From: an uncultured Verrucomicrobiota bacterium
GTDB taxonomy: Bacteria > Verrucomicrobiota > Kiritimatiellia > RFP12 > UBA1067
Reading direction: 5' to 3'
NCBI GenBank assembly: GCA_946610035.1
Contig: CAMOCC010000002.1
Location: 4,254 to 68,253, forward strand
DNA: 64,000 bases
The notes under the pieces are model-generated. The model was given only the letters and a program-made list of their open reading frames with translations. It searched no databases and was not told where the DNA came from. Below, piece after piece: positions 1,421-60,957 of this stretch. Position 1 is the stretch's first letter. The number at the start of each line of letters is the position of its first letter. The translations under genes and the position numbers were made by a program.

Positions 1421-1449
1421 TTGCCTAATCGCCCTCAAAATTGTATAAT
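1421..1449 (+). promoter_or_regulatory. sigma70-type promoter TTGCCT-N17-TATAAT upstream of pyrH
   Basis: TTGCCT at 1421-1426 and TATAAT at 1444-1449, with a 17-nt spacer. The TTG start of track ORF 1421 lies inside the -35 box. Confidence 0.5.
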
Positions 1450-1456
1450 CTACATT

Positions 1457-2182
1457 GTGAATAGAAAAAACAAGGTGAAGTACGGCAGGATACTGCTGAA
1501 GCTTTCGGGCGAAGTCCTCGGCAACCGGGAGACCGGCGAGTGCATCGACCCGAAGAATCTTGCTTTCATGGCCGAAAGGGTCAAGAAGATACACAAGATG
1601 GGCGTCCAGGTCGGCATCGTCCTCGGCGGCGGCAACATCTTCCGCGGGCTCACGGGCGCGGGGAAGGGCGTCGATCGCGTCACAGGCGACTCGATGGGCA
1701 TGCTCGCGACGGTCATCAACGCGCTCGCGATGATGAACGCGCTCGAGACGATCGGCGTCCCGACGCGCGTGATGACGGCCTTCGCCATCGACAAGATCGC
1801 CGAGCCGTTCGTTCAGCGCAAGGCGCTGCGCCACTTCGAGAAGGGGCGCGTCGTGATCTTCGCCGGCGGCACCGGGAACCCCTACTTCTCGACAGACTCC
1901 GCCGCGGCGCTCAGGGCGAGCGAGATCGGCGCCGGGGCGCTTCTCAAGGCGACGAAGGTCGACGGGATCTACACGGCCGACCCGAAGAAGGACCCGAAGG
2001 CGAAGAAGTATTCGACGCTCAAGTACGAGACGGCGCTCGAGAAGCGGCTCAAGGTCATGGACTCCGCCGCGTTCGCGCTTTGCATGGACAACGAGATCCC
2101 GATCGTCGTGTTCGACTTCTTCGACGGCGACGCGCTCGAGCGCGTCGTGAAGGGAGAGGCGGTGGGGACCATAGTGAGTTAA
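1457..2182 (+). CDS. pyrH: UMP kinase
   Basis: KYGRILLKLSGEVL...GGGNIFRG...MLATVINALA...FAGGTGNPYFSTDSAAALRA is the classic PyrH pattern. Start uncertain: GTG 1457 (7 nt after the -10) or GTG 1475. Confidence 0.9.
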   Translation: MNRKNKVKYGRILLKLSGEVLGNRETGECIDPKNLAFMAERVKKIHKMGVQVGIVLGGGNIFRGLTGAGKGVDRVTGDSMGMLATVINALAMMNALETIGVPTRVMTAFAIDKIAEPFVQRKALRHFEKGRVVIFAGGTGNPYFSTDSAAALRASEIGAGALLKATKVDGIYTADPKKDPKAKKYSTLKYETALEKRLKVMDSAAFALCMDNEIPIVVFDFFDGDALERVVKGEAVGTIVS

Positions 2183-2210
2183 GAGTTAGGAGTTGGGAGT
2201 TAAAAGTTAA
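2176..2210. repeat. five tandem heptamers GAGTTRR starting at the pyrH stop codon
   Basis: gagttaa gagttag gagttgg gagttaa aagttaa read directly from the sequence. It is an AT-rich island in GC-rich DNA. Confidence 0.8.
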
Positions 2211-2257
2211 GGGCGAGAGCCTTGATCGAAAAGTCTTGAAAACAAGAGGAACCAAAA

Positions 2258-2821
2258 ATGGAAACAGTCAGTGAAGTCTTGAACGATGCGAACGCCAAGA
2301 TCCAGAAGAGCTTCGACGCCTTGAAGCAGCAGTTCGCGGGATTGAGGACGGGCAAGGCGAACCCGGCGATGGTCGACCAGATCAAGGTCGACTACTACGG
2401 CTGCCCGACGCCGATCAAGAACCTCGGCACGATTTCAACGCCCGAGGCGCGTCAGATCAAGATCACCCCGTTCGATCCGACGGTCCTCGCCGAGATGAAC
2501 AAGGCGATCCTCGCCGCGAACCTCGGTGTCACGCCGCAGACCGACGGGAAGGTCCTGCGCATCACGGTTCCCGAGCTCAACGAGGAGCGCCGCAAGGAGA
2601 TCGTCAAGGTCGCGAAGACGCAGGCGGAGGCCCAGAAGGTCGCCATGCGCAACGTCCGCCGCGATGCGAACGACGCCGCGAAGAAGCTCGAGAAGGACAA
2701 GAAGATCTCCGAGGACGACCTCAAGTCGGCCCTGGACAAGATCCAGAAGGCGACTGACGCCGGCATCGCGAAGATCGACGCCGAGCTGAAGGCCAAGGAG
2801 TCCGAGGTGATGGCGGTCTAA
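2258..2821 (+). CDS. frr: ribosome recycling factor
   Basis: Full-length RRF-like translation (..LRTGKANPAMVDQIKVDYYG..ITVPELNEERRKE..) in the canonical pyrH-frr order. Confidence 0.92.
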   Translation: METVSEVLNDANAKIQKSFDALKQQFAGLRTGKANPAMVDQIKVDYYGCPTPIKNLGTISTPEARQIKITPFDPTVLAEMNKAILAANLGVTPQTDGKVLRITVPELNEERRKEIVKVAKTQAEAQKVAMRNVRRDANDAAKKLEKDKKISEDDLKSALDKIQKATDAGIAKIDAELKAKESEVMAV

Positions 2822-2864
2822 GGCCCTTCAACCGCGAACCATTTTCACGACAAGGAGGAAGACG

Positions 2865-3707
2865 ATGGCAGAAGAGAATCTGAGCCCTATCAGCGCACCG
2901 AAACCGCCGGCGGTGAATCCGCTCGGCGCGGCCACCTCGGCGCACGCGTCCACGCTTAAGCTGAAGCCGGTCATCCGCAAGCCCACCCTGGGCGGCGCGA
3001 AGCCGGGCGTCAATCCCGGGTTGAAGCTGCCCACGCAGGTGGGCGTCCCGAAGCCCGCCGCCCCGGCCGCGCCGGACTCGATGGAGCAGCTGAAGTCCGT
3101 CACCCAGAAGCTGAAGGGCGTCACCCAGCAGATTCCCCAGCAGGCGATTCTCCACAAGACGGGCATCATTGCGGACCAGAGCCTGACCGACGCACAGAAG
3201 CAGGCGTCGAAGTCCAGGACCGCGCGCATTTCGCTTTCGGACGCGATCGGCGTCGCCCCCGTGCAGAACGAGGCAGCCCCGATGAAGACGATCCGCATCA
3301 AGCGCCCCGTCGACCTCCAGGCGCCCGCACCCGAGCCGGCCCCGGCCGAGCCCGCGGCGGCGGAGTCGGCAGCGGCGACGATCACCCAGCGCAAGACGCT
3401 GAAGATCGCCCGCCCCGGCGGCGGAGTGCGTCCGACGGGCAAGTTCGGCGTCAAGAAGCCGGGCGCCGCGCCCGAACCCGAGGCCGCCGCAACCGCAGAG
3501 GGCGGAGAAGTCGCGGACATCCCGGATGTCGCGGACGTGCCTGCGGCGGCGCCTGTCGCGGCGCTTCCCGAGCCTGCGGCCAATACCGTGGCGGACGTCC
3601 CCGCCGGGCTTGCCGTCTTCGATCTGATCCTCCAGATCGCGGCGTGCATCGGCATCGGATTCCTCGGCTACCTCCTCTACACCGACTTCGAGACTCTTTG
3701 GTTCTAA
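2865..3707 (+). CDS. hypothetical Pro/Ala-rich, low-complexity protein with a single C-terminal transmembrane anchor
   Basis: SD aaggagg lies upstream. C-terminal helix is VFDLILQIAACIGIGFLGYLLY. Three basic motifs: LKLKPVIRKP, KTIRIKRP, KTLKIARP. Confidence 0.6.
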   Translation: MAEENLSPISAPKPPAVNPLGAATSAHASTLKLKPVIRKPTLGGAKPGVNPGLKLPTQVGVPKPAAPAAPDSMEQLKSVTQKLKGVTQQIPQQAILHKTGIIADQSLTDAQKQASKSRTARISLSDAIGVAPVQNEAAPMKTIRIKRPVDLQAPAPEPAPAEPAAAESAAATITQRKTLKIARPGGGVRPTGKFGVKKPGAAPEPEAAATAEGGEVADIPDVADVPAAAPVAALPEPAANTVADVPAGLAVFDLILQIAACIGIGFLGYLLYTDFETLWF

Positions 3708-3714
3708 TGCGGAA

Positions 3715-6736: not shown

Positions 6737-6745
6737 TGCTATAAT
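6737..6745 (+). promoter_or_regulatory. extended -10 element TGCTATAAT upstream of the hybrid kinase gene
   Basis: Read directly. It sits 37 nt upstream of ATG 6782 and 58 nt upstream of the alternative GTG 6803. Confidence 0.4.
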
Positions 6746-6781
6746 ACCATCAACCTAAGAACTAAGCATCTAGCTCTTTGC

Positions 6782-9526
6782 ATGATAAACTTAGGAGGGG
6801 GAGTGCAAAGTTTCGTAGTGTTCGCATTGGCAGTAGTTGCCTTGGCGGCGACCGCAGGAGCGGCCGCCCTGATTTGTTTGGTTGTCAACTACCGCCGGAT
6901 GGCCGACGTGCGCCTGCGTTCGGGCGCCGTCGCGCCGACTGTGGGGGCGGGGCCGCGGGTCCCGGTCGACGAGTCGTGGCCGGACCTGCATCCCGACGAT
7001 TCCAAGGCGGTCGCCATGGCGAGGCGCAAGGCCCTCATTACGCGCTTCGTCGATATTTCGCCGTCGCCGTGCTACGTGAAGGACGCCTCCGACGGCTTCA
7101 GGTACATCGTATGCAACGATGCGTTCGCCAAGCTGACGGGGCTTGACAAGGACAGGATCGTCGGCTCGACAGACGAGGAGCTGTTCGGTCCGAAGTTCGC
7201 CATGGAGTCGCGCGCGAAGGACGAGGAGGCCCTTGAGTCCGACGCGCCGCTCTTCTACGAGGGCGCCATGCCGACAACGAGGGGCGGCGTCGGCTACAAG
7301 GTGAACCGTCGCAAGCAGAGGATCGTGACATGGGACGGCGTGAAGCTCATCTTCTGCCTCATGAGGGACGAGATGTACGACAGCCGCAGGGCCGATTCGG
7401 AGGCGTTCAAGGCGAAGCTCCTCGCGTACGCCATCGACCATCTCAACCACGAGGAGAACATCGAGTACATAGCGAGGCTGCTCGTCGAATACTTCGGCTG
7501 CGACAGGGTCGCGATTCGGTTCTCGGACGGTCCGCGCCACATCTGCTGGGCTGACGGGCGCAGGGAGGACGACGCCACCGACGGACGCAAGGCGGCGTGG
7601 GAGGCGTTCGGGACGGGCGACATCGTGAACGTCGAGGATGCGTCCAGGCTGAACCCCGAGTCGTGGCCGGAAGGCGCGGGGGCGATGGCGTTCCTCGGTG
7701 CGCGCGTGATGAAGGGGGGCGAAATGGTCGTCCAGGTCGCGGCCATTTTCGACAAGGAGCCCCACCACTTCTTCGAGGTGTCCGAGAGTGTCGTCATGTT
7801 CGCCGCCGAAACGCTCGCCCTGTCGCTCGAGCGCGCGCGGCTGCAGCGTCCGTACCAGATCGCCAACGCGAACTTCGAGACGATGTCCCGCGCGCTCCAC
7901 GAGCTCCAGGCGTCCGAGACGCTCGACGACCTAACGCCGTTCGTCAAGATCGTCTGCGAGCGTTTCAATGCGGACTACTGCTCCCTTGTGAAGGTGCTCG
8001 ACGACGGGCATAGCGCGGTCGTCTGCCAGTACGACCCGGACAGGGTGAGCGTCCTGCCCGACCTTCGGCGCGGCATTGCGGACGCGGCGGTGGGCGAGCT
8101 TGCGGACCGCTTCGGCGAGCACGACGCAATCGAGCTCGGCGACGAGGAGTCGCGCAGGTTGTGGCTCGACCACGGCTTCAACGAGGCGCAGATCGCGTCG
8201 GCTGCGATCCGCCACACCCAGCTCGCGGCCGTGCGCGTCAACGGCAAGTTCTGGGGCGCGATACAGATAGGCCACCACAGCCGCCGCCTCCTGAGCGACG
8301 ACGAATGGGGCCATCTCCACCGTCTTGCGGAGGTCCTTTCCATCGCCATCCGCCGGCGCGACGCCCACGACGAGCTCAAGGCGGCGCTCGACCGCGCAAG
8401 GGCGGCGGACAAGGCGAAGTTCTTCTTCTCGACGGTGAGCCACGACATCAGGACGCCGCTCAACGCCGTCATAGGGCTTTCGCAGATGCTGAAGCTGGGC
8501 TTCGCCACGGAGCAGGAGCGCGACAATGCGATAGACTCCATAATCTTGAGCGGCAAGACGCTCCTGCAGCTCGTGAACGACGTGCTGGACCTCTCGAAAC
8601 TCGAGGCGGGCAAGGTGGTCGTCAGCCCGGAGCCTACGGACTGCGCTAAGCTCATTTCGGAGATAGTGGGTTCCTTCAAGGTCGCGAACCCCGGCGCGGC
8701 GGTCGACATACGCAGCAGGATGTCGCCTATGCCGCTCCTGGAGATCGACCCGCAGCGCATCCGCCAGATCATCTTCAACCTCGCGGGGAACGCCGTAAAG
8801 TTCACCGTGAAGGGCTTTGTGGAGGTGAGGGCGTCCTTCGAGCCCGATTCGCCAGGCGCGGGAGCCGGGACGCTCACCGTCGCCGTGGAGGACACGGGCT
8901 GCGGCATATCGAACGAGGAGAGGAAGTTCATCGACACGCCGTACGTCCAGTTCGGGAAGGGCGTCAAGAAGGGCGGCACGGGGCTCGGCCTCGCAATCTG
9001 CCGCCAGCTCGCATCCGCCATGCACGGCCGGATAGAGTTCGAGAGCGAGGTGGGCAGGGGGACCGTCTTCTACCTGAAGATACCGGGTGTCAAGGCGTGT
9101 GCGGGCACCGTCCGGCCCGGGAGGAAGGACGCACAGCTCATGAGCCTGAGCGCCGTGGATGCTGCGCATTCGCGCTACACGAAGGTCCTCATAGCCGACG
9201 ACTCCAAGGTGAACCTGATGGTCCTTTCGTCGATGCTCAAGCGCCTGGGCGTAAGGGAGGTCGTCAAGGCGGAGAACGGCAAGGAGGCGCTGGAGAGGCT
9301 TCGCGAGGGCGGCTTCGACCTCGTGCTCACCGACATGTGGATGCCTGAGCTGGACGGCGAGGGGCTCGTCCGCGCCATGCGCGCCGACAGGCGGTTCGAC
9401 GGACTGCCGGTGTACGCAATCACGGCTGACGTGGAGATTCGGAACCACGTTGCACTGGACGGCTTCAACGGCATACTGTTGAAGCCAGTGACCTTCGACG
9501 TGCTCAAGCCGGTGCTGAATGCGTGA
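6782..9526 (+). CDS. hybrid sensor histidine kinase (TM, PAS, GAF-like, HisKA, HATPase_c, REC)
   Basis: H-box FFFSTVSHDIRTPLNAVIG, G-boxes EDTGCGIS and GGTGLGLAICRQL, receiver KVLIADDSKVN..DLVLTDMWMPELDG. GTG 6803 is a likely alternative start, 4 nt after an AGGAGG. Confidence 0.88.
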   Translation: MINLGGGVQSFVVFALAVVALAATAGAAALICLVVNYRRMADVRLRSGAVAPTVGAGPRVPVDESWPDLHPDDSKAVAMARRKALITRFVDISPSPCYVKDASDGFRYIVCNDAFAKLTGLDKDRIVGSTDEELFGPKFAMESRAKDEEALESDAPLFYEGAMPTTRGGVGYKVNRRKQRIVTWDGVKLIFCLMRDEMYDSRRADSEAFKAKLLAYAIDHLNHEENIEYIARLLVEYFGCDRVAIRFSDGPRHICWADGRREDDATDGRKAAWEAFGTGDIVNVEDASRLNPESWPEGAGAMAFLGARVMKGGEMVVQVAAIFDKEPHHFFEVSESVVMFAAETLALSLERARLQRPYQIANANFETMSRALHELQASETLDDLTPFVKIVCERFNADYCSLVKVLDDGHSAVVCQYDPDRVSVLPDLRRGIADAAVGELADRFGEHDAIELGDEESRRLWLDHGFNEAQIASAAIRHTQLAAVRVNGKFWGAIQIGHHSRRLLSDDEWGHLHRLAEVLSIAIRRRDAHDELKAALDRARAADKAKFFFSTVSHDIRTPLNAVIGLSQMLKLGFATEQERDNAIDSIILSGKTLLQLVNDVLDLSKLEAGKVVVSPEPTDCAKLISEIVGSFKVANPGAAVDIRSRMSPMPLLEIDPQRIRQIIFNLAGNAVKFTVKGFVEVRASFEPDSPGAGAGTLTVAVEDTGCGISNEERKFIDTPYVQFGKGVKKGGTGLGLAICRQLASAMHGRIEFESEVGRGTVFYLKIPGVKACAGTVRPGRKDAQLMSLSAVDAAHSRYTKVLIADDSKVNLMVLSSMLKRLGVREVVKAENGKEALERLREGGFDLVLTDMWMPELDGEGLVRAMRADRRFDGLPVYAITADVEIRNHVALDGFNGILLKPVTFDVLKPVLNA

Positions 9527-46068: not shown

Positions 46069-46722
46069 GTGATGAAGATAGAGATACTGCCATCGCTTCT
46101 CGCGGCGGACTACGGAAGGTTCGCGGACGAGATACGGCGCGCCGAGGATTCGGGCGCGGACGCGCTGCACATAGACATAATGGACCCGACGTTCGTGCCG
46201 AACATGTCGTTCGGGCCGGACATCGTGGCGCTTGCGCGCCGCGTCGCGCCGGGGTTCTACCGGAACGTCCACCTCATGATGAACCGTCCCGACCTCTACC
46301 TGGAGGCATTCGCCAGGGCGGGCGCGCAGACCCTGCAGATACACATCGAGTCCGACTGCGACCTCCACACCGAGCTCGCCCGCATCCGCGCCATGGGCCT
46401 CAAGGCGGCCATCGTCCTCAACCCCGAAACGCCAGTCGAACGGCTCGCCCCGTACCTCGGCGAAATCGACGAGGCGCTCGTAATGACCGTCCACCCCGGC
46501 TACGGCGGACAGAAGTTCATCACCGACTGCCTGCCGAAGCTTTCGTGGCTCAGGGCGCGCGCGCCGGGACTCGACATCATGATCGACGGCGGCGCGAACG
46601 CCGAGACGATCCCGCAGGCGTTCGCCGCCGGCGCGAACCAGTTCGTCGCGGGAAGCCACCTCTTCGGCAAGGCGGACATGAAGTCGGAGGTGGCGCGTCT
46701 TCGGCGTCAGCTCGCAGGTTGA
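46069..46722 (+). CDS. rpe: ribulose-phosphate 3-epimerase
   Basis: ILPSLLAADYG.., ALHIDIMDPTFVPNMSFGP, MTVHPGYGGQKF, IDGGAN. Confidence 0.92.
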   Translation: MMKIEILPSLLAADYGRFADEIRRAEDSGADALHIDIMDPTFVPNMSFGPDIVALARRVAPGFYRNVHLMMNRPDLYLEAFARAGAQTLQIHIESDCDLHTELARIRAMGLKAAIVLNPETPVERLAPYLGEIDEALVMTVHPGYGGQKFITDCLPKLSWLRARAPGLDIMIDGGANAETIPQAFAAGANQFVAGSHLFGKADMKSEVARLRRQLAG

Positions 46723-47261: not shown

Positions 47262-48010
47262 AGACCGTCGTCGTAATACCCACGTACAACGAGAGGGAGA
47301 ACGTCGTCCGGATGGCGGAGGCGGTCCTCGCCAATGCCGACAGCGCGCTCGGGCGCGAGCTGGAGCTTCTTTTCGTGGACGACAACTCGCCGGACGGCAC
47401 GGGTTCGCTTGTCGACGGCATGGCCGCCGGGAATCCGCTCGTCCACTGCCTCCACAGGGAGCGGAAGGAGGGGCTCGGGAGGGCGTACGTCGCCGGGTTC
47501 AGGCGCGCGCTGGAGCTGGGGGCGGACCTCGTGGTCCAGATGGACTGCGACTTCTCGCACGACCCCAAGGACCTCCCCCGCCTCATAGCCGCGGCGTCCG
47601 CGCCGTCCCAGGACGCGAACGCACCGCGCCTCGTGATCGGTTCGCGCTACGTGAAGGGCGGCGCGACACCAGGCTGGCCGTTCAGGCGCAGGCTCATATC
47701 GAGGCTCGGCGGGATGTTCATCCGCACCGTAACCGGGATGCCGATAAAGGATCCGACGGGCGGCTTCAAGTGCTGGACGAGGTCCGCCCTCGAGGCGATC
47801 GACCTCGACACGGTGGAGAGCTCGGGCTACTCCTTCCAGCTGGAGATGAACCACCGCTCGTGGCGGCGCGGCTTCGCGATATCGGAGCTGCCGATCGTCT
47901 TCACGGACCGCGCAGCCGGCTATTCCAAGATAACGCCCGGCATCGCCGTCGAATCCGTCAAGATCGCACTGAGGCTTAGCAGGATTGCGCGCCGCGGCCG
48001 GATTTGGTAA
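47258..48010 (+). CDS. polyprenol-phosphate mannose synthase-like GT2 (Ppm1/DPM1 family)
   Basis: I place the start at ATG 47258 (ATGA overlap). VVIPTYNERENV, FVDDNSPDGT, DCDFSHDP, KDPTGGFKCW. Confidence 0.8.
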   Translation: MKTVVVIPTYNERENVVRMAEAVLANADSALGRELELLFVDDNSPDGTGSLVDGMAAGNPLVHCLHRERKEGLGRAYVAGFRRALELGADLVVQMDCDFSHDPKDLPRLIAAASAPSQDANAPRLVIGSRYVKGGATPGWPFRRRLISRLGGMFIRTVTGMPIKDPTGGFKCWTRSALEAIDLDTVESSGYSFQLEMNHRSWRRGFAISELPIVFTDRAAGYSKITPGIAVESVKIALRLSRIARRGRIW

Positions 48011-48013
48011 AAT
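47985..48013 (+). promoter_or_regulatory. promoter TTGCGC-N17-TAAAAT with TGG extension, embedded in the 3' end of the preceding gene
   Basis: TTGCGC at 47985-90 and TGGTAAAAT at 48005-13. ATG 48021 is 7 nt downstream. Confidence 0.5.
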
Positions 48014-48020
48014 GGAAGGC

Positions 48021-49505
48021 ATGGAAGAGCAGACGGAGGAGTGTCCGAAGAAGGTGCCGGGGCCGGCGAAGCGGGGCGGATGGCGGCGACGCAAATGGTG
48101 GGTCGTCGCCTTCATCGCCGCCGTATTGTTCTTTGCGTCCGCGCCGCTCACCGAGATTGCCGTCGAACATGTGCTGAAGTCGAAGCTTAACGACCCCGAG
48201 AAGGGGCTTTCGTGCCGCGAGGTGTCGATGAACGGCTTCGGATACCTCAAGCTCCTCTTCAAGCGCGACCCCGGGAGGGTGGACATCAGGGGGCTCAGGT
48301 ACTCGCTCGAGGCCATGCTGCCGGACGGCGGAATCCTCGAGAGCCGCGAGGCGGAGGTCGACGTGACGCTGAAGCGGCGCGAGATGGCCCCGGCGGGACG
48401 CCTCAGCCTGTCCGTGAAGGGGCGCGCCTTCGACTGGCCGCTCACGGCGTCGGGTACTATCGACCTGTCGTGGTCCAACCTCGTCACCGCCGCAGGATCC
48501 GTCCGCGCCGAGCTCTCGGACCTCGACGGCGGCTCGCCGTATGCGGTAACGGCCGACTTCTCCGCGTCGCCGTCCGCCTGGCGCGCAGATGCGCGAATCG
48601 CGGAGTTCGAGCTCTCGTCCGAAGACCCTGTCGCCGGACGGCTCGTGTCGCGCCTCGATGCGCCGGCCGTCTCGAACCTCGTCTTCAACGGACGCGTCAA
48701 GCTGGACGTCTCGGCGCAGAAGACGGAGGAGGTCCCCGTCATCGCGTGGACCCTCCGTGCGCCGATGCGAGGATTCAACGCGAAGCTCGACCTCGCGGGC
48801 GCGCCGTTCGAGCTTTCGGGCGCAAGCGTCATGCTCGGCGCCTCGGGGATTGCGAACCACCTGGATGTCGAGCCCGTGCGACTTTACATGCGCGCGCTGG
48901 AGACGTCCGGCTTCGCGCTCACGAACGCCTACGCCAGCCTTCGCAACGAGGGACGCACCCTGGTCGTGTCCGAGGCCGGCGCGGGATGCTGCGGAGGGAC
49001 GGTAAAGCTGTATTCGCTGTCGCTCGACCCCGAAAGGCTCAACGCCGGCTTCACGCTCTTCCTTGACGACATAGACGCCGGCGAGGCGCTCTCGCACCTG
49101 AACGGATTTCGGGGGACGGCCACCGGACGACTCCACGGCAAGCTGCCGCTGTCGGTCCGCGGCGGCACGCGGATCAGGCTGCGCGATGCGTTCCTCTACT
49201 CCACGCCTGGCGAGACCGGCAACCTCAAGATGTGGGATTCGTCGCTCATAACGGACAACCTGCGATTGGGAGGCGTACCGGAGGAGACGTGCGGCAACCT
49301 CGAGAATGCGCTCTCGAACCTCGACTACACCACGCTCAAGCTGAAGTTCGCCAACGAGGCGGACGGGGATGCGCTCTTGACGATGAAGCTGGCGGGGACC
49401 GCAACGCGCGGACAGCTGACCGTCCCCGTGGACATAACGGTCAACTTCCGCGGCGCGATAGAGCAGATACTCAACTTGGGCCTCAAGACCGCGTCGCAGC
49501 TGTGA
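48021..49505 (+). CDS. YdbH-like AsmA-family envelope protein (N-terminal TM anchor, DctA-YdbH C-terminal region)
   Basis: KWWVVAFIAAVLFF anchor. C-terminal ..HGKLPLSV..STPGETGNLKM..NLDYTTLKLKF..TMKLAGTA..VPVDITVNFRG. The track ORF starts at 47985; I prefer 48021 because of the promoter position. Confidence 0.68.
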   Translation: MEEQTEECPKKVPGPAKRGGWRRRKWWVVAFIAAVLFFASAPLTEIAVEHVLKSKLNDPEKGLSCREVSMNGFGYLKLLFKRDPGRVDIRGLRYSLEAMLPDGGILESREAEVDVTLKRREMAPAGRLSLSVKGRAFDWPLTASGTIDLSWSNLVTAAGSVRAELSDLDGGSPYAVTADFSASPSAWRADARIAEFELSSEDPVAGRLVSRLDAPAVSNLVFNGRVKLDVSAQKTEEVPVIAWTLRAPMRGFNAKLDLAGAPFELSGASVMLGASGIANHLDVEPVRLYMRALETSGFALTNAYASLRNEGRTLVVSEAGAGCCGGTVKLYSLSLDPERLNAGFTLFLDDIDAGEALSHLNGFRGTATGRLHGKLPLSVRGGTRIRLRDAFLYSTPGETGNLKMWDSSLITDNLRLGGVPEETCGNLENALSNLDYTTLKLKFANEADGDALLTMKLAGTATRGQLTVPVDITVNFRGAIEQILNLGLKTASQL

Positions 49506-50073: not shown

Positions 50074-50082
50074 TGGTACAAT
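50074..50082 (+). promoter_or_regulatory. extended -10 element TGGTACAAT, 7 nt upstream of ATG 50090
   Basis: Read directly. Confidence 0.45.
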
Positions 50083-50089
50083 ATTGCCA

Positions 50090-50884
50090 ATGCTACTTGA
50101 AATAGACGATTTGAGCGTTTCGTACAGGAACGACGAAGGGGAGGTGAACCCCGCCGCCATCGACGTGAATCTCACGCTCGACCGCGGCCAGGTCCTCGGC
50201 ATCGTGGGCGAATCCGGGAGCGGCAAGTCGACCGTCTCCATGAGCGTCGCGCGGCTCCTGCCGAGTCCGCCCGCATTCTATCCGAAGGGCCGCATCCTCT
50301 TCGACGGGACGGACATGCTGCGGCTTCCGCTGCCGGAGCTGAGGAAGATACGCGGCAAGCGCATCGGCGTCATCTTCCAGGACCCGATGGGCTCGCTCTC
50401 GCCCCTCCACCGCATCGGCGACCAGCTCGTCGAGACCGTGCTGCTCCACGAGAGGATGTCCGGGAAGGCCGCCCGCGCGCTCGCCCTCGAATGGCTGGGC
50501 AAGGTCGGCATACCGGACCCGGCGGTGCGCGAGCGCGCATACCCGCACGAGCTCTCGGGCGGCATGCAGCAGCGCGTCATGATTGCAATGGGGCTCATGC
50601 TCGGCCCCGACCTCGTGATCGCCGACGAGCCGACGACGGCGCTCGACGTGACCATCCAGGCGCAGGTCCTCCGGCTCATGCGCGAACTGCACAAGGCGAA
50701 CTCCGGCGTCCTCCTCATCACACACGACCTGGGCGTCGTCTCGCAGATGGCGACGAAGCTCGCAGTCATGAAGGACGGACGCGTCATCGAGACGGCGGAC
50801 GACCCGGCGGCGTTCTTCGCCGGGCCCAAGCACCCGTATTCGCAGGGACTCGTCCGCGAAGCTCGCAGAATGGAGCTTAAATGA
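50090..50884 (+). CDS. ABC transporter ATP-binding protein (DppD/OppD-like), no adjacent permease
   Basis: GESGSGKST, FQDPMGSLSP, LSGGMQQRVMIA, VIADEPTTALD. The track ORF starts at TTG 50084. Confidence 0.82.
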   Translation: MLLEIDDLSVSYRNDEGEVNPAAIDVNLTLDRGQVLGIVGESGSGKSTVSMSVARLLPSPPAFYPKGRILFDGTDMLRLPLPELRKIRGKRIGVIFQDPMGSLSPLHRIGDQLVETVLLHERMSGKAARALALEWLGKVGIPDPAVRERAYPHELSGGMQQRVMIAMGLMLGPDLVIADEPTTALDVTIQAQVLRLMRELHKANSGVLLITHDLGVVSQMATKLAVMKDGRVIETADDPAAFFAGPKHPYSQGLVREARRMELK

Positions 50885-52845: not shown

Positions 52846-52874
52846 TTGCGCTCGAGCGGCGGATATGATATACT
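52846..52874 (+). promoter_or_regulatory. promoter TTGCGC-N17-TATACT with TGA extension, upstream of the tRNA cluster
   Basis: TTGCGC at 52846-51 and TGATATACT at 52866-74, about 20 nt before the first tRNA. Confidence 0.55.
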
Positions 52875-52893
52875 ATATCTCGTTTTCTGATTT

Positions 52894-52970
52894 GGGGCTG
52901 TAGCTCAACTGGATAGAGCATCAGACTACGAATCTGAGGGTTATGGGTTCGACTCCCGTCAGCCCCGCCA
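52894..52970 (+). tRNA. tRNA-Arg (anticodon ACG)
   Basis: Hand-folded cloverleaf: GGGGCTG acceptor stem, anticodon loop CTACGAA, TTCGACT T-loop, CCA encoded. Confidence 0.92.
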
Positions 52971-52987
52971 TTTCGGAGAATCCAGAT

Positions 52988-53064
<77 letters not shown>

Positions 53065-53099
53065 AAGTCCGTGGAGAACTGGCCCGCGGCGACACACGG

Positions 53100-53176
53100 C
53101 GGACCGTAGCGCAGCCTGGTAGCGCGTTTGCTTGGGGTGCAAAAGGTCACGAGTTCAAATCTCGTCGGTCCGACCA
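53100..53176 (+). tRNA. tRNA-Pro (anticodon GGG)
   Basis: CGGACCG/CGGTCCG acceptor stem, anticodon loop TTGGGGT, CCA encoded. Confidence 0.92.
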
Positions 53177-53237
53177 AAAACGGTAAAGCCGGTGTTGTGC
53201 GTCCGGGTGCGCATGTCGCGCCCGAGAGCTGAAGCAC

Positions 53238-53311
53238 GGTGGGATGGCCGAGCGGTTAGGTAGCGGACTGCAAATCCGCTTACAGCGGTTCAACTCCGCT
53301 TCCCACCTCCA
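53238..53311 (+). tRNA. tRNA-Cys (anticodon GCA)
   Basis: GGTGGGA/TCCCACC acceptor stem, anticodon loop CTGCAAA, T discriminator base, CCA encoded; 74 nt. Confidence 0.9.
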
Positions 53312-53353: not shown

Positions 53354-54718
53354 TCACTGTAGCTTCGTCTGCGCGCGCAGTGCATTCAGCGCGCGGCGAA
53401 GGGACTGAAGGTCGGGCGTGGACGAGACCGAGACGCGGATGAACGAACGGGGATTCCCCGCTCGGACGCTGAAGCGGTCCGAATGGCACACCTTCACCCC
53501 CGCCTCGATGCAGCGCCTCTCTATCTCCGGACCCGTCCCCGCGGTCCCGGGAAGCGGCACCATCCTGAAGAAGGCGGTCGGCGCGGCCGCGAATGCGTTC
53601 GGGAACACTTTCTCGAAGACGGCGTTCGCCGCCCTTGCGCACTTCGCCTTTGCCGAGAGCATCGCCTCGGCGCGCCCCGAAAGGACCAGCTCCGCAAGAA
53701 TCTCCGCATCGAGGGCGCCCGCCTTGATGGCGAGATGGTGGAGGGCGTCGAGGATCCTCCCGGCTCCTTCCTCCGGCAGCGCCGCCCACGTGGCGCGAAG
53801 GCCGGGCGCGAGCGCGCGCGTGGAACCCGCGATGTAGAGGCACCTCCCGGGAATGCGTGAATGGAGCGTTCGCTCGCGGCCCTTCGGGGGGACGATCCGC
53901 GAGTCGTCCTCGATGAGGGAGATGCCGGCCCCCCGCACGACGTCGGCAAGCTCGTCCTTGCGCCGCTCGGACATCGTGATCGTCGTCGGGTTCGCGCAGT
54001 TGGGCATGAGATAGACTCCGCGCAGCCGCTTGTCCGCCGCCGCCGCATCGGCGAGCGCATCGGGGCGCATTCCGCCTCCATCGGACGCCACGGGGACGAG
54101 CCTCACGTGTGCGAGACGCGCGAGGCGTATGAGGTTCGAGTAGGTGAACTCGTCCGTCGCGAGCGCGTCGCCCACTCGGAAGAGCGACATGAGCGCGGCC
54201 GATATCGCGCCCTGCGCGCCGGGGAAGACCGCGGTCCGCCCCGCTGCCGCTTCGACTCCGTTCCGGCCCAGCCATGCGACGCCTGCGGCGAGCGGACGCG
54301 CCGCGCCGTCCCTGTCGCAGTACGAGAAGATGCGCTCGGCCGTGCCGCGCGAGAGCACGGACTTCGCGGCGGCGACTATCTCGTCCGCCCCAGTCGCCGG
54401 GAAGCCCTGCACCACGGAGCAGTCCACGGCCTCGCCTCCCGCATCCGGCGACGCGACGAAAGTGCCGCGCCCCGTGACGCCGTAGATGAGCCCGCGTTCG
54501 CGGCATACGCCGTAGGCGCGCGTGACCGTCGTGAAGTCGATGTCCAGGTAGTCCGCCAGCTCGCGCTGCGGCGGCAGCTTCGCGCCCGGCGGAAGCAGTC
54601 CGGCGGCGATGTCGTCGGCCAGCTGTGCGGCGAGGGCGAGGTACACTGGGCCGCCGCCGGGCGCGTCGCGCCTCGGCCGCCACGAGAGGGGATGGTCGTC
54701 GAAGGAGTTCACAGGCAT
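53354..54718 (-). CDS. pdxR: MocR-subfamily GntR regulator (wHTH plus fold-type I aminotransferase-like domain), PdxR-like
   Basis: N-terminal [41 protein letters not shown], then a long aminotransferase-like domain. Divergent from pdxS-pdxT. Confidence 0.8.
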
Positions 54719-54732
54719 CTTTATTGTCCTCC

Positions 54733-54752
54733 ATACAATTTTGCGATTGTAT
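54733..54752. promoter_or_regulatory. inverted repeat ATACAAT-N6-ATTGTAT in the pdxR/pdxS divergent control region (candidate PdxR operator)
   Basis: Read directly. It overlaps the -35 (TTGTAT 54747-52) of the plus-strand promoter TGGTACACT (54767-75). It lies just downstream of the minus-strand -10 TGATATAAT (complement of 54755-63). Confidence 0.45.
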
Positions 54753-54819
54753 GTATTATATCAGAATGGTACACTCTACGCAAGCACCCCGGGAAAGGGG
54801 GCGGAAAGGAAGAGTAGAG

Positions 54820-55695
54820 ATGAACGAAGACAGGGGCGAACTGAACAGGAACCTCGCGCAGATGCTCAAGGGCGGCGTCATAATGGACGTCACGACCCCG
54901 GAGCAGGCGGAGATCGCGGAGGCGGCGGGCGCGTGCGCGGTGATGGCGCTCGAGCGCATTCCCGCGGACATCCGCGCGGCGGGCGGGGTGAGCCGCATGA
55001 GCGACCCCGCGATGATACGCGGGATCCAGGAGGCGGTCACGATCCCGGTGATGGCGAAGTGCCGCATCGGACACGTCGCGGAGGCCCGGATCCTCGAGGC
55101 GGTGGAGATAGACTACATCGACGAGAGCGAGGTGCTTTCGCCGGCGGACGACGTCTACCACATCGACAAGTCGGCGTTCAGGGTTCCGTTCGTCTGCGGC
55201 GCGCGCGACCTCGGGGAGGCGCTTCGCAGGATCGGCGAGGGCGCGTCGATGATACGCACAAAGGGCGAGCCGGGGACCGGCGACGTCATACAGGCGGTAC
55301 GCCACCTCAGGAGGATGCAGGGCGAAATCCGCCGCGTTGCCTCGCTCCGCGAGGATGAACTGTACGAGGCGGCGAAGCGGCTCGCGGCGCCGCTGGACCT
55401 CGTTCGCTACGTACACGCGAACGGCAGGCTCCCTGTCGTGAACTTCGCGGCGGGCGGAGTCGCGACGCCCGCCGACGCCGCGCTCATGATGGAGCTGGGG
55501 GCGGAGGGCGTCTTCGTCGGCTCGGGGATCTTCAAGAGCGGCGACCCCGCGAAGCGCGCCTCGGCGATCGTCCGCGCCGTCGCGAACTGGAGGGACTCGA
55601 AGCTCCTGGCCGAGATTTCGGAGAACCTCGGCGAGGCGATGGTCGGCATCAACGCGGACGAGATAGAGACGATAATGGAGGAGCGGGGGAGATGA
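54820..55695 (+). CDS. pdxS: pyridoxal 5'-phosphate synthase, lyase subunit
   Basis: [43 protein letters not shown]..., IDESEVL, KGEPGTG. I place the start at ATG 54820, within track ORF 54625. Confidence 0.93.
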
Positions 55696-56337: not shown

Positions 56338-57243
56338 CTAGAGCAGCTTGTCCGCGGCGGTGTTGAACCACTTGTAGCCGCGCTGTCGCTTCGGGTCGAT
56401 TTCGTCCACTGAGCGCTTCGGTATGCCGGATCGGTCGCAGAAGAACGGCCTGCACTCCTTAAGGTCGTAGAACCGCGCCCAGCGACCGTCCGGCAGACGT
56501 GTGCGGCGGAACCACTCCACCGCGCCGTCTATGGAGGCGCGGAGCTCCGGCGACGGATTCTCCACCGTCTTCAGGAACTCGACCAGGTGGGCGGACTCCT
56601 GGCTGCAGAACGATGCGAGCTCGTAGGCGCGTCCGTTGGTCGGTGCAAGCGTCTCGCGGTCGTGCTGCTGGCACCAGACGGTCGGCTTTCCGTCCACGCG
56701 GATCTGGCAGGCGAGCACGCAGGCGAGCCCCCGGTCGAACGCCGCGCGGCAGCGCTTGCGCAGTCCGTCGTCCGCCCAGGCGAAGCCCCCCTTGCCGCGC
56801 GCGACGTCGTACATGATGGAGAGGACGAGCTCCATTGCGCGGTCGTTGAATGTTATCTGGGTCCAGTATCCCTTCTTCCTCTCCGGATACTGCGCCCAGC
56901 CGCCGTTCGGCATCTGGACGCGAAGGAGCCATTCGATCCCGCGGACGGCGGACGCCTTGGAGCGTTCGTCGCCGGTCCGCGTGAAGTGCCCCGCGAGGAA
57001 CCGTATCTGCGTCGTCGTGGCGTTGTTGTCGATCGTCGCCTTGTCCGACTTCGCCCGCGTTGCGGCGTAGTCCGCCGGACACGGCTTTTCCATGTTCTTC
57101 TTCTTCTGCCATCCTCCGCAGTCGAGCTGGTAGTCGCGCGTGTTCTGCGCGATCTGGTCGTCGGACGGAGTGTTCTTCCCCTCGCCGGCGAACAGCGTGA
57201 AGGCGGTGCCCAGGGAGGCGATAAGCGTTGCTATGGTTTTCAT
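56338..57243 (-). CDS. pectate lyase, PelA/Pel-15E (PL10-like) family, secreted
   Basis: Signal peptide, then QLDCGGWQK.., MPNGGWAQYP, ITFNDRAM, the alpha/alpha-toroid PL10 pattern. Confidence 0.68.
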   Translation of the reverse strand: MKTIATLIASLGTAFTLFAGEGKNTPSDDQIAQNTRDYQLDCGGWQKKKNMEKPCPADYAATRAKSDKATIDNNATTTQIRFLAGHFTRTGDERSKASAVRGIEWLLRVQMPNGGWAQYPERKKGYWTQITFNDRAMELVLSIMYDVARGKGGFAWADDGLRKRCRAAFDRGLACVLACQIRVDGKPTVWCQQHDRETLAPTNGRAYELASFCSQESAHLVEFLKTVENPSPELRASIDGAVEWFRRTRLPDGRWARFYDLKECRPFFCDRSGIPKRSVDEIDPKRQRGYKWFNTAADKLL

Positions 57244-57252
57244 GATGTCGAC

Positions 57253-57281
57253 ATTGTACCATTGCCGGCTTGCGGCGGCAA
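57253..57281 (-). promoter_or_regulatory. minus-strand promoter TTGCCG-N17-TACAAT with TGG extension; start codon 9 nt after the -10
   Basis: The reverse complement of 57253-61 is TGGTACAAT. The reverse complement of 57276-81 is TTGCCG. Confidence 0.5.
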
Positions 57282-57296
57282 TGCCCGATTGGGTAG

Positions 57297-57326
57297 TTGC
57301 AGTCCGGCGGGGAAGTTTGATACAAT
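57297..57326 (+). promoter_or_regulatory. promoter TTGCAG-N18-TACAAT with TGA extension; ATG 57333 lies 6 nt after the -10
   Basis: TTGCAG at 57297-302 and TGATACAAT at 57318-26. Confidence 0.5.
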
Positions 57327-57332
57327 CTAGGC

Positions 57333-59582
57333 ATGAATACGAAAATACTCAGGACCGTTTTCGCCGCGGCGACTGCATTCGCCGCGTTCGGAGCATTCGC
57401 CGTCGAGCCGTCCGTCATCTGGAGCGACCGTCCGGCGGCCATCTGGAACGACGCCTATCCGGTGGGCAACGGCAACGTCGGGGCGATGGTCTCCGGCGGC
57501 GGCGAGACGCGCATCCAGTTCAACCACACGCGCCTCTGGAGCGGGAGCCCGCACTGCTACGACAACCCCGGCGCGGCGGACGTCCTGGCGGAGATGCGCA
57601 GTTTAGTCTTCGCGGGGAGGAAGGCGGAGGCGAGGGATCTTGCGAACGCCCGGTTCATGGGAAGGCCAGTCGGGCAGCAGCGCTTCCTGCCGTTCGGCGA
57701 GGTGGTGGTGCGCTTCGACGGGGAGGCGGGCGACCTCCGGCGCGAACTGCGCCTGGGCGAGGCGCGGCACCTTGCGTTCTTCACCGTTGATGGATGCCGC
57801 ATTGCCGAGGAGACGTTCGCCCCGTATTCGGAGCCGGAGCTGATCTTGCATCGCATCGTCTCCAGGAAGTCCGGCGGGGTCTCGTGCGAAATCTCCCTCT
57901 CCACCCCGCACAGGATGTCGACAATCGCGCTGGAGGGGACGGAGTTCCGCCTGGACGGAAAGGCGCAGGGGGACGGCGTCGCCTTCGCGGCGCGCATGGC
58001 GGTCCGGGTTGGGGGCGAAGGCGCCAAGTGCGAGCCGCGCGACGGGCGGCTCGTCGTCCGCGGGGCGGATTCCGTGGAGCTGCGCCTCGTGGCGGCGACG
58101 AACCTAAGGAGCTGGAAGGAGCTGTCCGGCGATCCCGCCGCCGATTGCGCGGCTGCGCTGAGGCGGACGGCGGGGAAGGGATACGCCGAAATCGCCAAGG
58201 CGCACCGCAAGGCGTTCGGCGCGCTGTACAACCGCGTGGAGCTCGACCTGCCGGGCGACGCGGAACTTGCGAAGCTCCCGACGTCCGAACGCCTCGCGCG
58301 CCAGTCCGAGTCCCGCGACCCCGCATTCGCCAAGCTGATGTTCGACTACGGACGCTACCTCCTCATCTGCTCCTCGCGCGCGGGCGGCGAACCCGCCAAC
58401 CTACAGGGCATCTGGAACAAGGACCTCCATCCCGCATGGGGATCGAAGTACACGTGCAACATCAACGTCGAGATGAACTACTGGCCGTCCGAGACGTGCG
58501 GACTCGGCGATTGCGCCAAGCCCCTCTTCGACGCCGTAGCCGAGCTCGCCGAAAGCGGCGCGCGCACGGCGAAGACGCACTACAACGCGCCCGGCTGGGT
58601 GCTCCACCACAACTTCGACGTGTGGCGCGGAACGGCGCCGGTGGACGGCGCCGACTGGGGCATTTGGCCGACGGGCGGCGCGTGGCTCTCGCTCCACCTC
58701 TGGGAGCACTGGCTCTTCACGCGCGACCGCGCATTCCTGGCGAAGTCGTTCCCGACGATGCGCGGTGCGGCGGAGTTCTTCACGGCGACGCTTGTGCGCC
58801 ACCCGAAGACGGGGAACCTTGTGACGTGTCCGTCCAGCTCGCCAGAGCATGGCGGACTCGTTGCGGGCCCGGCCATGGACACGCAGATAATCCGCGCGCT
58901 GTACGCGGCGCTGCTGGAGGCGGCGGACGTGCTCGGCATGGCGGGCGACCCCGTCGTGGGGAAGGTCCGCGAACAGCTGCCGCGCCTTGAGCCCGAGCAC
59001 ATCGGCAGGTGGGGGCAGCTGCAGGAGTGGATAGAGGACGTGGACGGCCCGGACGACCACCACCGCCACTTCTCGCACCTCTGGGCGGTCTATCCCGGCT
59101 GCGAGATAACGCCCTCGACGGGCGACCTCTTCGCCGCTGCGAAGAAGTCCATGATAGCGCGCGGCGACGAGGCGACCGGGTGGTCGATGGGATGGAAGAT
59201 AAACGCGTGGGCGCGCTTCAGGGACGGCGACCATGCGATGAAGATAATGGACAACCTGTTCCGTCCTGCGATCCTTCCGGACGGCAGGGAGCGCGGCGGA
59301 CTCTATGCTAATCTCTTCGACGCGCATCCGCCGTTCCAGATCGACGGCAATTTCGGCGTGACGGCCGGCGTGGCGGAGATGCTGCTCCAGAGCCACCGCA
59401 GGACGGCGGACGGCGAGACGCTGATCGACCTTCTGCCGGCGCTTCCTTCGTGCTGGCCGGCGGGGTCCGTCAAGGGCCTTCGCGCGCGCGGCAACCTCAC
59501 CGTCGACATCGCATGGCGCGACGGCAAGGTCGTCGACTATTCCGTCAAAGGCCCCGGCAAGTGGCGCCTCGCCCAGCCGTAG
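57333..59582 (+). CDS. glycoside hydrolase family 95 (alpha-L-fucosidase-type), secreted
   Basis: [16 protein letters not shown].., [45 protein letters not shown]. Confidence 0.85.
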
Positions 59583-59676: not shown

Positions 59677-59732
59677 TGCGGCCCCCATTCCCCGTTCCAT
59701 CGAACTTGTCATGGAAAGTTCCGGCAAAATAA

Positions 59733-59741
59733 TGTTATAAT
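59733..59741 (+). promoter_or_regulatory. extended -10 element TGTTATAAT upstream of the aldo/keto reductase gene
   Basis: Read directly. It makes the track start ATG 59742 implausible. ATG 59769 follows an SD-like ggaaaggaaag. Confidence 0.4.
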
Positions 59742-59768
59742 ATGCTGTGTTGGAAAGGAAAGCATCAC

Positions 59769-60737
59769 ATGGACAGATATGAAACGATGCCGTATGTGCG
59801 GTGCGGACGAAGCGGACTCAGGCTTTCGCGCGTCGCGTTCGGGCTCTGGCACAACTTCGGGACGTACGACGACCGCGCGAACATGGCGCGTCTCGTCACG
59901 CGCGCGTTCGACCTGGGCATAACCCACTTCGACCTCGCGAACAACTACGGTCCGGAGCCTGGCTCGGCGGAGGAGAACTTCGGGCGGCTCCTCGACTCGG
60001 AACTGAAGGGACACCGCGACGAGCTGATCGTCACGACGAAGGCGGGACATCTCATGTGGCCGGGTCCGTACGGCGACTGGGGTTCGCGCAAGTCGCTGAT
60101 CGCGAGTCTCGACCAGAGCCTCAGGCGCATGAAGCTCGACTATGTCGACATCTTCTATTCCCACCGCCCCGATCCGGAGACGCCGCTGGAAGAGACGATG
60201 GGCGCGCTTTCGGACATCGTGCGCTCGGGCAAGGCGCTCTACGTCGGAATTTCGAAGTATTCTGCCGCGCAGACGCGCGAAGCGGCGGCGATCCTGAAGC
60301 GCAACGGCACGCCGCTGCTCATACACCAGTTCCGCTACAACATGTTCACGCGCGGCATCGAGAAGGACGGACTTCTCGACGCGCTGGAAGAGACCGGTGC
60401 CGGCGGCATCTGCTTCTCGCCCCTCGCGCAGGGGCTTCTGTCGTCGCGTTACCTTGACGGAGTTCCCGCCGACAGCAGGGCGGCGAAGAACGCCTTTCTG
60501 AAGACCGACACCATTACGCCTGAAATGCGCGCGAAGCTTGCAAGACTGAACGATTTCGCCGTGTCACGCGGCCTGACGCTCGCTGAACTCGCTCTCAAGT
60601 GGGTGCTCCGCGACCGGCGCGTAACTTCCGTGCTGATGGGCGCGAGCCGCGTCAGCCAGCTTGAGGAAAACCTCGGTTTCCTGCAGAAACCGGACCTCGG
60701 TTCATCCGATCTGGAGGGAATCGAAGGTTTGCTGTGA
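59769..60737 (+). CDS. aldo/keto reductase (YghZ/Gpr-like)
   Basis: MPYVRCGRSGLRLSRVAFGLWHNFG, HFDLANNYGP, DIFYSHRPD, and the rest of the AKR fold. Confidence 0.85.
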   Translation: MDRYETMPYVRCGRSGLRLSRVAFGLWHNFGTYDDRANMARLVTRAFDLGITHFDLANNYGPEPGSAEENFGRLLDSELKGHRDELIVTTKAGHLMWPGPYGDWGSRKSLIASLDQSLRRMKLDYVDIFYSHRPDPETPLEETMGALSDIVRSGKALYVGISKYSAAQTREAAAILKRNGTPLLIHQFRYNMFTRGIEKDGLLDALEETGAGGICFSPLAQGLLSSRYLDGVPADSRAAKNAFLKTDTITPEMRAKLARLNDFAVSRGLTLAELALKWVLRDRRVTSVLMGASRVSQLEENLGFLQKPDLGSSDLEGIEGLL

Positions 60738-60750
60738 AGGGCTTTAAGGT

Positions 60751-60834
60751 TCCCCATTCCACGTTCCCTATCCCCCATTCCCCGTTCCCCGTTCCCCATT
60801 CCCCGTTCCCCAATCCCCGTTCCCCGTTCCCAAC
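60751..60834. repeat. twelve tandem heptamers TCCCCRT (minus strand: G4-tract array)
   Basis: tccccat tccacgt tccctat cccccat tccccgt tccccgt tccccat tccccgt tccccaa tccccgt tccccgt tcccaac. A 2-3 unit copy of the same motif is at 59682-59702. Confidence 0.9.
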
Positions 60835-60836
60835 AA

Positions 60837-60852
60837 ACTGGTATATACCAGT
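60837..60852. promoter_or_regulatory. perfect 16-bp palindrome ACTGGTATATACCAGT upstream of the second giant gene (candidate operator)
   Basis: Read directly. It ends 35 nt upstream of a TACAAT -10 candidate (60888-93). Confidence 0.4.
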
Positions 60853-60957
60853 AGAAAAAGGAATTGCGGGGAATGGTGAAAATTGTGTACAATGGCGGTG
60901 TTCGACGGGGGAAGTGTCCCTGCGTCGTTCACTTAAACCTTAAAAAAAGGAGCCAAA

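Follow-up and report, generated by a model that had tools for sequence, protein, structure and literature searches.

An extended -10 promoter and predicted leaderless genes in an uncultured gut/rumen member of the Kiritimatiellia

Genes and boxes in the window

The window analysed here is the whole 64,000-nt stretch at positions 4254-68253 of contig C2 (CAMOCC010000002.1) of a metagenome-assembled genome (MAG; 3.03 Mb, 62% GC, 191 contigs, an estimated 88% complete). Its genes include pyrH, GH43, GH95 and PL10 genes, a YdbH-like gene, an ABC ATPase gene and a tRNA operon, and all of these are preceded by copies of one short box, TGNTANAAT or a one-mismatch variant of it, which has the form of an extended -10 promoter element and is the subject of this study. 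Because its RpoD shares 77-83% identity with RpoD proteins from rumen and gut MAGs that carry the labels Kiritimatiellae, Verrucomicrobia or “RUG”, we assign the organism to the class Kiritimatiellia of the PVC (Planctomycetes-Verrucomicrobia-Chlamydiae) group, as an uncultured gut or rumen member. Exact matches to TGNTANAAT number 13 in the window, as compared to 0.99 expected, a count reached by none of 100 shuffles. The original prediction, made from the window alone, had listed 15 sites, and every one of them is found where it was placed: 11 carry TGNTANAAT exactly (6737, 18266, 29523, 41957, 43785, 46006, 48005, 50074, 57261 on the minus strand, 57318 and 59733), and four deviate by one mismatch, namely TTGTATAAT (1444), TGGTAAACT (31639), TGATATACT (52866) and TGGTACACT (54767). 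Two further exact sites had been overlooked, 54763 on the minus strand and the intragenic 33055.

At five genes the box had been proposed to stand so close to the start codon that no room is left for a Shine-Dalgarno (SD) sequence. The distances from the last T of the -10 to the start codon are as predicted: 6 nt for GH43, 7 nt for the YdbH-like gene, 7 nt for the ABC ATPase, 6 nt for GH95 and 9 nt for PL10, and Pfam agrees with all five gene names. The GH43 promoter (29487..29540, plus strand) consists of the -35 TTGCGC (29503-29508) and TGGTATAAT (29523-29531), followed after 6 nt by ATG 29538; this is the first start codon of the open reading frame (ORF), a signal peptide begins at its Met, and the gene is predicted to be leaderless. 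In the YdbH-like promoter (47985..48023, plus strand) the -35 TTGCGC (47985-47990) and TGGTAAAAT (48005-48013) precede ATG 48021 by the same kind of arrangement, with 7 nt between box and start. This site is not intergenic, as the listed sites had been said to be, since its -10, TAAAAT, contains the TAA stop codon (48008-48010) of the upstream gene and the promoter thus lies inside the 3' end of that gene. The ABC ATPase promoter TGGTACAAT (50074..50092, plus strand) stands 7 nt from ATG 50090, with a terminator-like hairpin, GCCCGCTGAGGGC, just upstream, and this gene too is predicted to be leaderless. Between the divergent PL10 (Pec_lyase) and GH95 genes (57241..57335) lie TGGTACAAT on the minus strand (57253-57261; 9 nt to ATG 57243) and TGATACAAT on the plus strand (57318-57326; 6 nt to ATG 57333). 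Both proteins have a signal peptide from the start, and neither ORF has a start codon ahead of its ATG; the two start codons are just 89 bp apart, with the two predicted leaderless promoters between them. A sixth short-spaced case, beyond the five listed, is pyrH (Pfam AA_kinase; 1421..1459, plus strand), in which the -35 TTGCCT (1421-1426), a 17-nt spacer and TTG-TATAAT (1441-1449, the TTGTATAAT variant listed as 1444) are followed after 7 nt by GTG 1457, again predicted to be a leaderless start.

Genome-wide, TGNTANAAT occurs 648 times in the 3.03 Mb, and 581 of these copies are intergenic, a density 62 times that in coding DNA (0.015 per kb). The hexamer TANAAT without the TG is enriched in intergenic DNA only 6-8 fold, which is the baseline of any AT-rich word, and the TG is therefore near-obligatory; the TANACT variant reaches 20-fold intergenic enrichment. 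The position matrix of the box reads a-T-w-TG-g-TATAAT-a-t, and 82% of sites have the T that stands two bases before the TG. We considered whether the copies stem from a repeat or mobile element and rejected this: the conserved stretch is only ~12 bp long, and the flanks are unrelated between sites.

A -35 element, as compared to the TG, is a minority feature. Across the genome, 11% of sites carry TTG at a 17-nt spacer and a further 16% carry it at 18 nt (~1% at neighbouring spacings), usually in the form TTGC/Ann, which amounts to ~27% of sites; the original statement that many sites have a -35 at 17-18 nt is right about the spacing and generous about the number. The three TTGCGC elements that it pointed to (29503, 47985 and 52846) are all present, each with a 17-nt spacer. 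As the general -35 of the genome TTGCGC was rejected, being found in 14 of 641 strict promoters, with TTGCGG, TTGACT and TTGACA as common or commoner. It is mainly the -35 of a promoter class with the layout CCCCC-TTGCGC-N14-TGATATACT, which serves tRNA genes and some leadered protein genes.

Of the 51 tRNA genes, 26 have the box within the 120 nt upstream, in most cases with 11-25 nt between its end and the mature 5' end of the tRNA, and its presence there argues that it acts in transcription and not in translation. The tRNA promoters share an architecture of an A/T tract, (T)ACCCCC-TTGCGC, 14 nt, TGATATACT and AT, seen at 52820-52874 in the window and at ~20 other loci, and the same architecture recurs at some leadered protein-gene promoters; at most tRNA promoters the -10 is TATACT, not TATAAT. 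One of the three TTGCGC sites of the window, 52846, is explained by this class. It belongs to the tRNA operon promoter (52846..53311, plus strand), where an A/T tract and CCCCC are followed by the -35 TTGCGC (52846-52851) and the one-mismatch box TGATATACT (52866-52874), which ends 19 nt before tRNA-Arg; tRNA-Met, tRNA-Pro and tRNA-Cys follow.

One RpoD scores above the NCBIfam cut-off (380.9 bits against 354). Its translation contains VHMIETINK and TRERIRQIEAKALRKL, which we take to be the counterparts of the E. coli sigma-70 contact motifs in region 3.0 and region 4.2, the His and Glu of VHMIETINK presumably corresponding to E. coli H455 and E458. Both motifs look canonical by eye, which gives no support to an altered sigma factor as an explanation of the pattern. 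In the explanation that we favour, and that we hold as a whole to be very probable, TnTGnTAnAAT would be the housekeeping (RpoD, sigma-70) promoter of this genome, with a near-obligatory extended -10 and a weak or absent -35, and many of its copies would be placed for leaderless translation.

Box-to-start spacing and the leaderless reading

Counted with no gene model, ATG follows the box at a distance of 6, 7, 8, 9 and 10 nt at 70, 74, 43, 41 and 41 sites, respectively, as compared to ~5-20 sites at other spacings, and the modal spacing is 6-7 nt. The control triplet ACG is found at 0-3 sites at the 6-10 nt spacings. In total, 269 of the 648 boxes have an ATG 6-10 nt downstream, and 242 of these ATGs open an ORF of at least 80 codons. 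Using codon-usage gene calls, we found TANAAT 5-11 nt before an in-frame start in 315 of 2012 genes (15.7%), or ~31% if the 1026 genes with non-coding DNA upstream are taken as the base.

These 315 candidates differ from the remaining genes in how their starts are built. ATG is the start codon in 90% of them as compared to 74% of other genes (GTG accounts for 7% of the candidates), and an SD core precedes 5% of the candidate leaderless starts versus 45% of other genes, in which the spacing of GGAG peaks at 7-8 nt. The 3' ends of the 16S rRNA in seven same-genus genomes read GGATCACCTCCTTTCT, with the anti-SD CCUCC intact; a survey gives CCUCCUUU for Kiritimatiellae (PMC10783764). The contrast in SD frequency, the ATG peak at 6-10 nt and the intact anti-SD support the original proposal that leaderless and SD-led initiation are used side by side.

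The base before the ATG is C in 87% of cases at the 6-nt spacing and in 73% at 7 nt. This creates the C-A step that bacterial transcription start sites typically show. When the spacing is 8-10 nt, the step does not shift with the ATG and stays 6-8 nt from the -10, so that the mRNAs of these classes probably carry leaders of 1-3 nt instead of none. Together with the modal spacing of 6-7 nt, this gives no support to a polymerase that would as a rule start 9-10 nt past the -10.

From these observations a sequence of events can be proposed. The RpoD holoenzyme would hardly depend on a -35 in binding the TG and the -10; it would then open the DNA, and transcription would start ~7-8 nt past the last T, at the purine of the C-A step. 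In about a third of promoters that purine would open an ATG or, in fewer cases, a GTG start codon, giving an mRNA that lacks an SD and has no leader at 6-7 nt spacing or a 1-3 nt leader at 8-10 nt. Initiation would then depend on the start codon being recognised directly at the 5' end of the mRNA, the mode known from Actinobacteria and Deinococcus. Of the remaining promoters, most are followed after ~25-60 nt by an SD-led start or after ~11-25 nt by a tRNA, and genes inside operons would rely on a canonical SD. The motif statistics, the spacing peak, the absence of SD, the N-terminal conservation described below, the use of the box at tRNA genes and the anti-SD of the genus are all read directly from the DNA; the exact 5' ends of the transcripts and the mechanism of translation are what we infer from them. 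Every test at this level agrees that promoters are positioned for leaderless translation beside SD-led initiation, and the proposal is to that extent supported.

Several points weigh against the proposal. Gene calls and start choices come from a simple custom codon-usage caller; at 8-10 nt spacing the mRNAs may carry leaders of 1-3 nt, and “leaderless” is then true only in a loose sense that admits up to 5 nt; a search for a 16S rRNA gene in the window's own MAG, which is 88% complete, returned none; and the site of the YdbH-like gene is shared with the end of another gene. In addition, the start codons are predictions: the leaderless codon is not the first start of the open frame in 129 of the 315 candidates, and the caller picked a different start for 128. 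These last figures would suit a reading in which the boxes are real promoters of ordinary leadered mRNAs and translation starts at an internal in-frame codon. Such a reading, however, leaves the 90% ATG usage and the sharp 6-10 nt peak without a cause, and it meets difficulties at the protein level. A signal-peptide-like N-terminus begins at the predicted Met, and so requires this promoter-proximal Met, in 120 of the 315 candidates (38%) and in 49 of the 78 (63%) at 6-nt spacing, as compared to 22% of other genes; in those genes the real start can therefore not lie downstream. For GH43, GH95 and PL10 of the window, no alternative start codon stands ahead of the hydrophobic core in the signal peptide. 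Conservation sets in at codon 2 in the ABC ATPase orthologues and directly behind the GTG in PyrH. All close ABC ATPase orthologues have the N-terminus MLLEIxDL from codon 1 (in distant ones 1-2 extra residues come first), and six of nine same-genus orthologues have an extended -10 at 6-7 nt, with a spacer sequence that differs in each. For pyrH, the -35 ATTGCC, TATAAT, 7 nt and GTG recur in 11 of 11 same-genus genomes, and in other families of the order the gene is preceded by an SD or a longer leader. A 5'-terminal GTG suffices for leaderless translation in mycobacteria (PMC4633059). At the level of predicted proteins, the orthologous N-termini confirm two of the starts, those of the ABC ATPase and of pyrH, and we regard internal initiation as a general explanation to be very unlikely.

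The box could also be imagined as a translation-initiation or mRNA element, such as an unstructured stretch or an S1-binding enhancer, that lies within longer transcripts and is not a promoter. Its location 6-10 nt before the start is indeed that of a ribosome-binding site, and such placement of the box is known to confuse gene finders in genomes of the leaderless type discussed below as group C (PMC6028130). An element of translation would nevertheless have no business in front of 26 of 51 tRNA genes, which are not translated, or mostly 25-60 nt ahead of SD-led starts, nor would it account for the TG extension, for TTG at exactly 17-18 nt in ~27% of sites or for a C-A step at the canonical distance of a transcription start. 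We consider this the least probable of the alternatives, with hardly any chance of being right. For the YdbH-like gene alone, a local explanation deserves more weight, namely that read-through from upstream is followed by termination and reinitiation over a 10-nt gap, the box at 48005 being weak or incidental. The overlap of the -10 with the upstream stop codon at 48008-48010 and the position of the -35 within coding sequence speak for it. Against it stand the rarity of boxes in coding DNA (0.015 per kb) and the full consensus geometry of the site, with TTGCGC at exactly 17 nt and ATG at 7 nt; we regard reinitiation here as possible, yet clearly the less likely account of this gene. A leaderless start from an extended -10 promoter remains the reading we prefer for the short-spaced genes as a group.

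Other promoters and putative operators

The remaining boxes of the window precede genes with leaders. The promoter of a hybrid histidine kinase gene, TGCTATAAT (6737..6805, plus strand), is leadered, with the SD AGGAGG at 6793-6798 and GTG 6803, and so is that of a response-regulator/SpoIIE-phosphatase gene, TGGTATAAT (18266..18336, plus strand), with the SD GGAGAGGAG at 18319-18327 and ATG 18334. A GDP-mannose-dehydratase-type gene follows TGGTAGAAT (43785..43821, plus strand) with the SD AAGGAG at 43805-43810 and GTG 43819. Of the three strong SD sites named in the original prediction, those at 6793-6798 and 43805-43810 stand, and the third lies at 10726-10731 and not at 10722-10728. A PATR-repeat protein of 1992 aa has the -35 TTGACA (31618-31623), an 18-nt spacer and the one-mismatch box TGGTAAACT (31639-31647) in its promoter (31618..31680, plus strand), with a short leader to either ATG 31666, 18 nt past the -10, or ATG 31678. 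The GT2 glycosyltransferase promoter, TGGTATAAT (41957..41998, plus strand), is leadered, ATG 41996 being 30 nt past the -10 with only a weak purine-rich tract, and that of an aldo/keto reductase gene, TGTTATAAT (59733..59771, plus strand), is likewise leadered, with ATG 59769 27 nt past the -10 and a weak GGAAAGGAAAG tract. Downstream of TGGTAAAAT (46006..46074, plus strand), ribulose-phosphate 3-epimerase would start at GTG 46069 or ATG 46072, ~54-57 nt past the -10; if transcription starts ~7 nt downstream of the -10, the leader is ~48-50 nt long, and it has no clear SD.

The divergent pair at 54718..54822 consists of a GntR/aminotransferase (PdxR-like) regulator gene, led by TGATATAAT on the minus strand (54755-54763) with an SD GGAGG and ATG 54718, and pdxS, led by the one-mismatch TGGTACACT on the plus strand (54767-54775) with ATG 54820; both are leadered. 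An inverted repeat, ATACAAT-TTTGCG-ATTGTAT (54733-54752), lies between the two genes and is probably the operator of the PdxR-like regulator; the pdxS -35 and the point where the regulator transcript is expected to begin both overlap with it. The exact TGGTACAAT at 33055..33063 (plus strand) is found inside the 1992-aa gene, in a low-GC stretch, and may be a chance match or an internal promoter. Two very large genes, 31666-37644 and 60973-64000, lie in stretches of 56-59% GC as compared to 65%. The former encodes the PATR-repeat protein; in the latter, whose ORF exceeds 1000 aa, nothing in Pfam matches the first 1009 residues.

A second element accompanies a subset of the boxes. The palindrome (A)CCC-N4-GGGTRRT is found in 59 promoters genome-wide and at two places in the window: at 29487-29503, where GH43 has an operator-like CTACCC-GAAC-TGGTAAT upstream of its -10, and at 57284-57297, between PL10 and GH95. 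The distance from the start of its right arm to the -10 hexamer downstream is 28-30 nt, so that the palindrome is centred near -43, and 35 of the 59 promoters are predicted to be leaderless, mostly with 6-nt spacing. The ten Pfam-checked downstream genes are GH35, GH97, GH3, GH95, GH10/GH43, an AXE1 esterase, a GDSL esterase, an MFS_2 sugar transporter and a HisKA_3 sensor kinase, as well as the GH43 of the window. The palindrome has the look of a binding site for a class-II-type activator that controls a glycan-degradation regulon. Between PL10 and GH95 there is a single copy, CCC-GATT-GGGTAGT, and because its distance to each of the two -10 hexamers downstream is about the same (~31-33 nt), a single dimer bound there could act on both genes. 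In its strict form the palindrome is confined to two genomes, this one with 13 copies and G012, the closest relative, with 16, and there is none in 10 other same-genus genomes.

Distribution and comparison with known systems

To follow the signature across relatives, we counted TGNTANAAT-N6/7-ATG against a reversed control. The count is 144 versus 1 in this genome, 27-151 versus 0-13 in 12 same-genus genomes, 42-121 versus 0-2 in three genera of the same family (g10, g11 and g86), 19-57 versus 0-10 in family f10 (genus g13) and 67 versus 8 in one f9 genome. Little or nothing above background was seen in two other genera of the family (G123 and G285), and the same holds for seven more families of the order, for ~40 additional families of the class and for nearly all of the 148 genomes that represented the remainder of the phylum. 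The exceptions are several genomes with a moderate excess over a raised control (e.g. G089 with 53 versus 12 and G270 with 51 versus 9) and a few genomes of one distant genus, g98, in another family of the phylum. Of these, G210, G208 and G244 show a moderate excess, up to 59 versus 0, which other genomes of g98 lack; this may be an independent occurrence. The bare box exceeds the control 10-30 fold in most genomes of the genus and 1-3 fold in the other families.

Since the strict pattern could miss looser leaderless promoters, we also ran the gene caller on 400 kb of each of three genomes. There is no TANNNT peak before starts in the 400 kb of G123, which belongs to the same family and has 66% GC (a k-mer screen against reversed sequence was uninformative for this genome). 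The 400 kb of G069, a complete 2.95-Mb genome of another order with 64% GC, likewise has no TANNNT peak, and has a strong SD peak. In G133, of family f10, a small TANNNT peak involves ~3% of genes. GC content as the cause of the patchiness was rejected, given that G123 and G069, at 66% and 64% GC, show no TANNNT peak.

The signature is patchy: three families of one order show it strongly, and nearly all of the class and phylum lack it, in a group that otherwise relies on ribosome-binding sites. We lean, by a small degree only, towards a recent shift, in which a few related gut/rumen Kiritimatiellia families would have moved, separately from other members of the class, to a near-perfect, TG-obligate extended -10 and about a third of first genes would have passed from SD-led to leaderless initiation. 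This is suggested by pyrH, with its predicted leaderless GTG start in all 11 members of the genus and an SD in sister families, and by the same-family relative of similar GC that shows no trace of the signature.

If it did occur, such a shift would offer a natural comparative system for the evolution of leaderless genes and of promoter consensus strength, and the patchy family-level spread, with orthologues switching between SD-led and leaderless starts, would be a comparative handle on the origin of leaderless initiation in a lineage outside the two phyla where it is best known. There are practical consequences too. Start calling that looks for SD sequences only would mis-call up to one gene in six in these abundant and uncultured glycan degraders of rumen and gut, and the near-invariant box should let promoters, and hence transcription units and regulons, be read from MAG sequence. 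No new mechanism is implied.

Two kinds of known system resemble the one described here. With regard to the promoter, the box recalls the extended -10 (TGn) promoters of E. coli, reportedly treated by Mitchell et al. in 2003, and the TRTGn “-16 region” promoters of Bacillus subtilis, said to have been described by Voskuil and Chambliss in 1998: the TG lies one base upstream of TATAAT, the T of TnTGn is present (82% here) and the -35 is weak or, as is predicted here, dispensable. While the TG is a minority feature in E. coli and is found in roughly half of Bacillus promoters, it is near-obligatory here.

With regard to translation, Deinococcus deserti likewise has a high-GC genome with an AT-rich -10 directly upstream of many start codons, and 167 of 262 mapped genes are leaderless by the figures quoted for it (de Groot et al. 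2014, as cited in PMC6028130); the arrangement was established there by differential RNA sequencing (dRNA-seq) and proteogenomics, and here from sequence alone. In the literature on leaderless genes or transcription start sites in Kiritimatiellia or Verrucomicrobia, we found no report of either feature. The system appears to be a known kind of mechanism in a lineage where it is apparently unreported, with a narrow and patchy distribution.

The closest parallel is group C of GeneMarkS-2, made up chiefly of Actinobacteria and Deinococcus-Thermus, in which 25-50% of transcripts are leaderless (PMC6028130). In both, a Pribnow box stands 6-8 nt from the start codon of first operon genes (PMC6028130), box-led genes lack an SD and the remaining genes are SD-led, the leaderless share is comparable (25-50% there, a predicted ~31-37% here), and a 5'-terminal ATG, sometimes GTG, serves as the start there and would do so here; the mechanism has been studied in mycobacteria (PMC4633059). 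They differ in that the Kiritimatiellia/PVC lineage is not mentioned in the text of PMC6028130, that the -10 is much stricter here (TGnTAnAAT as compared to TANNNT), that GTG starts are rare here (7%), and that the trait is present in a few families and is not phylum-wide. Judged by sequence-level features, this genome agrees with group C in every one of those that define it.

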